Sequence record: PZ496580.1
From: a phage
Direction: 5' to 3' (one strand)
Length of the DNA: 64,000 nucleotides
A program made the translations under genes and the position numbers. Under the pieces are notes generated by a model. That model did not search any database and was not told the origin of the DNA. It worked only from the letters and a program-made list of their open reading frames with translations. Shown here in pieces: positions 41,461 to 41,877 of this stretch; position 1 is the stretch's first letter, and each line of letters opens with the position of its first letter.

Positions 41461-41877
41461 TTAGAGAGATTCGGTAAAGGTACGAGCGATAACATCACGC
41501 TGCTGGTCTGGAGTCAGACTATTGAAGCGCACTGCGTAACCAGAAACGCGAATTGTAAGCTGCGGGTACTTCTCAGGATGTTCAACCGCGTCAAGTAACA
41601 TTTCTCGTAACAATACGTTAACATTCAAATGCTGACCACCTTCGACAACCGGAGCACCATTATCTACAATCACCGGACGGAAGCTAGTTGTGTGTAGTGC
41701 CAGTGAATCGACGTCTTCTGCGGTGATCACATGGTCTTCTGCGAAAGTTTTACTAACAATTACTTTAGCGCCGATCAGTGCTTTCGGTTCGGATACCAGA
41801 ATCATAGGCGCGAAGTGTCCACCAATAATAGTACCTTTATGCTCACCTTTCATGATTTGAATTGCTTTAAATTCCAT
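41461..41877 (-). CDS. grcA: autonomous glycyl radical cofactor (GrcA/YfiD-like; T4 Y06I-type)
   Basis: C-terminal ~70 aa nearly identical to the GrcA signature ([52 protein letters not shown]). Confidence 0.9.

Follow-up and report, generated by a model that had tools for sequence, protein, structure and literature searches.

An old vs.6 gene in an RB49-like coliphage encodes a GrcA/YfiD-like glycyl radical protein, a very likely spare part for host pyruvate formate-lyase

The systems closest to the gene described here are two small glycyl radical proteins, YfiD (GrcA) of Escherichia coli and Y06I of phage T4. According to PMC8683613, both of them restore the activity of pyruvate formate-lyase (PFL) that has been cleaved by O2 at Gly734, which is the role that the first-pass annotation of our locus had given to GrcA. 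The same paper, which cites Wagner et al. 2001 for the rescue of O2-cleaved PFL by Y06I in vitro after activation by PFL-AE, reports that the PFL activase installs a radical on YfiD as well as on Y06I. Furthermore, it reports that residues 61-127 of YfiD duplicate the fold of PFL 693-759 and that YfiD's N-terminal half, which is disordered, is required for binding and for efficient activation.

Regarding the phages, a comparison of T4-like genomes published in 2006 found a Gly_radical match for vs.6 in all six genomes compared, RB49 included (PMC1524935). The vs.6 gene of T4 (NC_000866 63557-63919) is annotated as GrcA and is located between regB and denV. We infer that it is the Y06I of the literature, as the inspected region of T4 contains no second gene of this kind.

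We analysed a stretch of 64,000 nucleotides from a phage (sequence record PZ496580.1), which we call the window. The features of the vs.6 locus and the other genes of the window that matter for its interpretation are collected in Table 1.

Table 1. Position of vs.6, its parts, its expression signals and related genes in the window.
Feature	Position	Strand	Details and basis
NrdG, radical-SAM activase of NrdD	18499..19008	(-)	Pfam Fer4_12 E=2.4e-43, Radical_SAM E=3.1e-4
NrdD, class III (anaerobic) ribonucleotide reductase that has a glycyl radical domain of its own	20412..22274	(-)	Pfam NRDD E=1.1e-175, Gly_radical E=4.3e-23
nrdC.11, RlaP-family (RNA repair pathway, DNA polymerase beta-like) nucleotidyltransferase	40676-41374	(-)	Pfam E=3.4e-14
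Sigma-70-like promoter TTGGCT-17-TATGAT with TG, ahead of nrdC.11	41405..41433	(-)	Overlaps the vs.6 hairpin
Intrinsic-terminator-like hairpin, 10-bp stem, 5-nt loop, then T-tract	41417..41451	(-)	A terminator is annotated at this position in relatives
vs.6 CDS	41461..41877	(-)	138 aa, ATG start, TAA stop; ORF plus Pfam, NCBIfam and PHROG matches
Codons 72-138, glycyl-radical module, equivalent to YfiD 61-127 / PflB 693-759	41464..41664	(-)	Alignments to 6OWR and PFL 698-759; AlphaFold model; YfiD limits from PMC8683613
GGT codon of Gly113, predicted radical glycine in RVSGY	41539..41541	(-)	Position from the ORF; alignment invariance
Codons 1-71, phage-type N-terminal half (KAIQI..GEHKGTI ... 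VIVSKTF)	41665..41877	(-)	Alignments to T4 Vs.6 and E. coli GrcA; motif classes
Shine-Dalgarno GAGGTG	41882..41887	(-)	4 nt upstream of the vs.6 ATG; read from the sequence
vs.8	42013-42498		
Endolysin	42561-42950		

The vs.6 protein was matched by Pfam Gly_radical with 61.3 bits (cut-off 22.2, E=1.5e-16) and by the NCBIfam GrcA model TIGR04365 with 133.8 bits (E=3.9e-39), and PHROG 1209 covers its residues 3-138 (E=3.4e-51). BLASTP against GrcA of E. coli K-12 gave 69 identical positions out of 104 over residues 37-138 (E=6e-43). These matches are far beyond chance and bear out the GrcA/YfiD-like identity proposed in the first-pass annotation, which had named a low identity to GrcA as the result that would speak against it. 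It had also been claimed that the C-terminal 70 residues are nearly identical to GrcA; this is correct for the last 61 residues or so, where 56 of 61 (92%) are shared with E. coli GrcA, but not for 70. The peptide quoted there as the family signature corresponds to residues 106-138, and the radical glycine placed in its RVSGY is Gly113 according to our prediction. Compared with the complete host enzymes, the module is identical at 50 of 61 positions to PflB, RVSGYAV included, and also at 50 of 61 to TdcE (82.0% of the amino acids in each case).

GrcA/YfiD proteins are described as small stand-alone proteins of around 14 kDa (TIGR04365; IPR011140), a size to which the 138-residue product conforms, with a C-terminal module homologous to PFL 693-759 that carries the RVSGY glycine, and the vs.6 protein has this module as well. 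Its TIGR04365 score does not reach the equivalog cut-off of 170 bits. For comparison, E. coli GrcA scores 234 bits and T4 Vs.6/Y06I 151.1 bits, the latter being below 170 too. Since T4 Y06I is reported as validated and nevertheless falls under this value, the cut-off delimits the bacterial type and not the function. A full-length glycyl radical enzyme, with a barrel of ~750-850 aa and active-site cysteines, is not what vs.6 encodes: only positions 683-744 of the 744 of the PFL profile are matched, at 88 bits, where the cut-off is 994. Membership in the phage group PHROG 1209 agrees with the similarity to T4 Vs.6 over the full length and with the conserved position in the tk-vs-regB-...-e early region. 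Judged from its sequence, the vs.6 product is an autonomous glycyl radical protein of the GrcA/YfiD-like kind by structural definition, and a member of the phage Vs.6 group.

The conservation of the protein is concentrated in the module. When 52 homologs from phages and bacteria were aligned, 24 positions were invariant, all of them in residues 83-135, and S112, G113 and Y114 are among them. The AlphaFold model of the protein has a mean pLDDT of 79.7, with block means of 83-94 over residues 91-138. The predicted structure of residues ~78-138 matches the NMR structure of YfiD (6OWR, 60 residues aligned with 92% identity) and the C-terminal part of PFL in crystal structures (1CM5, 2PFL), and the radical loop and the C-terminal helix are predicted to fold as in E. 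coli GrcA. For the N-terminal half (residues 1-70, predicted with moderate confidence) we found no significant structural neighbour in the PDB. This half carries the phage-type motif KAxQIxxGxHKGTI ... VSKTF, which, in a classification of 123 homologs, is common to T4 and to phages of Klebsiella, Yersinia and others, and the N-terminal motif of the bacterial GrcA, GIQITKA.N..L.NSFWLLD, is absent from the protein.

The protein resembles E. coli GrcA in being small, in standing alone and in its C-terminal 61 residues, but it differs from it in residues 1-36, which remain unaligned and recall the start of the bacterial protein just faintly (IQI), and the codon usage of the two genes is also unlike. 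The likeness to the C-termini of PflB (698-759) and TdcE is of another kind. The PflB segment, which carries Gly734 and is lost on cleavage by O2, matches the module, whereas the catalytic barrel and Cys418/Cys419 have no counterpart in the vs.6 protein, which consists of the radical module and a short N-terminal extension only.

The window belongs close to the RB49-like coliphages: the 8 kb around vs.6 are 95-96% identical to the Krischvirus phages Brandy, Skers, Phi1 and RB49. The protein is 100% identical to that of Skers (QXN69241), which is annotated as 'putative autonomous glycyl radical cofactor', and the same ORF is called vs.6 in the annotation of RB49. The identity to T4 Vs.6 is 58% over residues 4-138 (E=4e-47), so the earlier statement that T4 has a comparable gene, Y06I, stands, with Y06I equated to Vs.6 in the way explained above. 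Both proteins have the same phage-type N-terminal motif, the same 28-residue C-terminal stretch and the same PHROG, but T4 Vs.6 has 120 residues against the 138 of the window protein, in which ~12 extra residues are found in the N-terminal half. The gene order in the window is endolysin, vs.8, a small ORF, vs.6, nrdC.11, ..., regB, vs.1, vs, tk.4, and it matches that of RB49. In T4 the order is parallel (vs.8, vs.6, then regB, vs.1, vs, tk.4), although nrdC.11, directly downstream of vs.6 in Krischvirus, is located elsewhere in T4, adjoining mobD. On sequence similarity and gene order, vs.6 of the window is the Krischvirus ortholog of T4 Vs.6/Y06I. Outside this group, some records of small temperate phages (P2/P88-like, 33-40 kb) matched the GrcA C-terminus at 84% and were annotated as pyruvate formate-lyase/formate C-acetyltransferase; these matches are probably host pflB DNA at prophage borders.

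Regarding the expression signals, vs.6 is located in an early-type gene cluster, and no site of the T4 late promoter TATAAATA was found near it; four such sites are present in the whole window, fewer than expected by chance. The hairpin with its T-tract starts 10 nt 3' of the stop codon. Together with the overlapping promoter (41405-41451 in the window) it resembles the PeSL promoter/stem-loop cassettes that have been described for RB49 and phi1 (PMC2839356).

We consider it very likely that vs.6, as the Krischvirus ortholog of T4 Vs.6/Y06I, provides a phage spare part for host PflB. By analogy with YfiD and Y06I, the sequence of events would start when O2 reaches an infected, fermenting E. 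coli cell, where the Gly734 radical of active PflB would react and the chain would be cut at that glycine. The vs.6 protein would then bind the cleaved PflB, probably with the help of its N-terminal half in the recognition, as in YfiD, and its C-terminal 67 residues, a copy of PflB 693-759, would replace the strand, the radical loop and the helix that were lost. Host PflA (PFL-AE) would install a new radical on Gly113, and PFL activity would be recovered, yielding acetyl-CoA (hence ATP) and formate. In a microaerobic infection this formate might also supply the phage NrdD/NrdG. The steps from the binding of cleaved PFL to the restored activity were shown for T4 Y06I and E. coli YfiD; for the window protein we infer the same mechanism, in which host PflB and PflA would be the partners and Gly113 would carry the radical, because the whole module (72-138) and RVSGYAV are kept. 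The purifying selection on the gene is strong (dN ~0.09 with saturated dS in the comparison with grcA). No PflA-like activase is encoded in the window, so the function would depend on the activase of the host. Furthermore, since residues 1-36 do not align with GrcA and ~12 residues are inserted with respect to T4, the recognition of cleaved PflB could differ.

The first-pass annotation placed the gene alongside NrdD and NrdG and related the three of them to infection under low oxygen. The Pfam matches confirm that NrdD and NrdG are encoded together with vs.6, in the same genome and on the same strand, and the link to low-oxygen infection is reasonable. However, the two genes are not adjacent to vs.6 but 19-23 kb away from it. 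Class III ribonucleotide reductases use formate as the reductant (PMC4493059), but with this distance between vs.6 and nrdD/nrdG the link between formate and NrdD has no local support in this genome. A different arrangement is seen in the Klebsiella phage RaK2, where the vs.6 homolog (321409-321771) is immediately downstream of nrdD; such an adjacency is not seen in the window, and in RaK2 it lends some support to the link. In the Aeromonas phage phiAS5 the vs.6 match overlaps the gene annotated as the small subunit of the anaerobic ribonucleotide reductase.

These two arrangements could also be read in another way, namely that vs.6 serves a different glycyl radical enzyme, either host TdcE (2-ketobutyrate formate-lyase) or the phage NrdD. 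The equal similarity of the module to TdcE and PflB goes in the same direction, as does an early genome paper that guessed a role in nucleotide metabolism (PMC1524935), and in PMC8683613 it is put forward as a speculation that the repair of other glycyl radical enzymes could be carried out by some GrcA-like proteins. Nevertheless, we regard this reading as unlikely. The module copies the C-terminus of PFL, the models that match it are those of GrcA and PFL (88-134 bits) and no NrdD model appears, its structural matches are YfiD and PFL, and the T4 ortholog is reported, in that same paper, to act on PFL. If TdcE were rescued too, this would add a target and not replace PflB, and NrdD was rejected as the repair target because the module matches PFL-type models only.

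The same module that is conserved in its key residues turned out to be the variable part of the gene among close relatives. The Krischvirus-type homologs hardly differ from one another in their N-terminal ~70 residues, while their C-terminal module is strongly variable. The allele diversity was taken from GenBank phages and metagenome contigs, since a scan of the IMG/VR viral contigs with the N-terminal half yielded one locus only. In all of the divergent loci inspected, that is, the 10 Krischvirus loci with a divergent 3' half, an ORF for a NUMOD4+HNH_3 endonuclease was found between the vs.6 terminator and nrdC.11 (at ~41407 in the window). Relative to the window, the flanks of the divergent loci are ~97-100% identical, and the identity is 40-70% from a variable point within vs.6 (41704-41632) to ~41375.

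The endonucleases at vs.6 are of two unrelated-looking types, of 197 and 175 aa. The 197-aa type was detected by tblastn in exactly the nine GenBank phages with the matching allele (FL04, G37-3, MIZ4, MIZ5, pEJ01, FL20, LF73P4, JK32 and AV108). The 175-aa type is present in three metagenome contigs and in JSE, and tblastn also gave sequence matches to it in phiS, 011D4 and Whisky. In G2248, which has no endonuclease at vs.6, a short stretch (41629-41582) is of the 175-type allele. Both in the window and in RB49 the site between vs.6 and nrdC.11 is empty. There is a second insertion hotspot between vs.8 and the endolysin (42499-42560 in the window), where FL04, JK32, G2248 and a phiS-like contig have an ORF of ~190 aa for an HNH_3+AP2 endonuclease, absent from the window.

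Free-standing homing endonucleases are known in the T4-type phages, where the Mob and Seg families carry out intronless homing. The loci of the relatives are like them in that the ORF is intergenic, beside a conserved gene, and the flanking tract has diverged and has variable ends; they differ in that the window lacks an endonuclease gene at the vs.6 site and in that the cleavage site is putative. The divergent tracts with an inserted endonuclease are the pattern that would be expected of homing with co-conversion, and we propose this as a hypothesis from the sequence patterns. We are evenly divided on whether the glycyl-radical module of vs.6 is a recombination hotspot of this kind and the window carries an unoccupied, probably cleavable homing site. 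If it were so, the endonucleases would recognise the conserved DNA coding for the Gly loop in the phages with an empty site. A shuffling of cassettes mediated by PeSL (PMC2839356) was rejected as the sole cause of the allele mosaics, since the left end of the tract is variable and falls inside the vs.6 coding region instead of at the intergenic PeSL.

The association of the 3' half of vs.6 with homing-endonuclease genes in the relatives could suggest that the protein repairs nothing, and that it is a decoy for host PFL-AE, a blocker of PflB, or a gene kept mainly as a landing site for homing endonucleases. This is very improbable, because no residue class that the radical loop and the helix require has been lost, more than 1,500 phage records of several families show strong purifying selection, R[VI]SGYA and an undisrupted frame are preserved in the alleles linked to endonuclease genes, and the T4 ortholog is reported in PMC8683613 to restore PFL activity and not to inhibit it.

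Finally, the near-identity to the bacterial protein had been taken in the first-pass annotation as a sign of recent acquisition from the host, to be checked by a comparison with host grcA at the nucleotide level. Over the 61 conserved codons (41464-41646 in the window) vs.6 shares 74.3-74.7% of its nucleotides with E. coli grcA, 75.4% with pflB and 71.6% with tdcE, despite the 92% identity of the proteins GrcA and Vs.6 in this part. Among the 56 codons for the same amino acid in vs.6 and grcA only 24 are identical, and dS is saturated and cannot be estimated. When 5,426 complete E. coli genomes were searched by blastn, the best match was 76.2% over 185 nt and corresponded to pflB. The best 80 bacterial grcA loci, with one genome per species, were 68-79% identical in DNA and up to 95% in protein, and a 24-mer spanning the Gly codon was not matched exactly in any of 185,579 species genomes.

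The recent capture of host grcA by this phage, with the near-identity as the mark of a short time since the transfer, is hardly credible in view of these values, of the phage-type N-terminal half common to T4 and phages of other genera and of the synteny conserved with T4, and it is already refuted for the sampled bacteria, even though such an exchange did happen in T4. Taken together, the phage-type N-terminus, the synteny with T4 and the low nucleotide identity show that vs.6 of the window is old as a phage gene and that purifying selection on it is strong.

In T4 the situation is different. The 3' 183 nt of T4 vs.6 are 97.3% identical to grcA of E. coli K-12; the similarity begins abruptly at the codons for VEGGQH and runs to the stop codon, and the upstream half has no nucleotide similarity to grcA. 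T4 vs.6 thus looks like a chimera that arose when host DNA recently replaced part of the phage gene by conversion, and the window allele shows no such event. The Klebsiella phage JD18 is intermediate, with up to 89% identity. Therefore, the idea of a recent acquisition from the host applies to relatives, not to the phage studied here.

What this analysis establishes is the gene itself, with its domain structure, its age and its orthology to T4 Vs.6. The identification as such was already known: vs.6 is a real, ordinary and already annotated gene, which is present in the GenBank annotation and was described in RB49 as a Gly_radical protein in 2006 (PMC1524935), while the T4 ortholog was characterised in 2001, as cited in PMC8683613. 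Nothing that we found on vs.6 changes the current understanding, and the analysis adds two modest points. One of them is that a high protein identity to the host is not evidence of recent transfer here, as the synonymous sites are saturated, and it is the T4 copy that is host-like in its DNA. The other is that the radical module may be a hotspot of allele replacement linked to homing endonucleases in RB49-like phages, which could help to map the targets of these endonucleases. Regarding the biology of the phages, T4-like coliphages have in vs.6 a textbook-type auxiliary metabolic gene, by which the phage would invest in the anaerobic energy and formate supply of the host beside its own anaerobic ribonucleotide reductase, and this fits a life in the gut.
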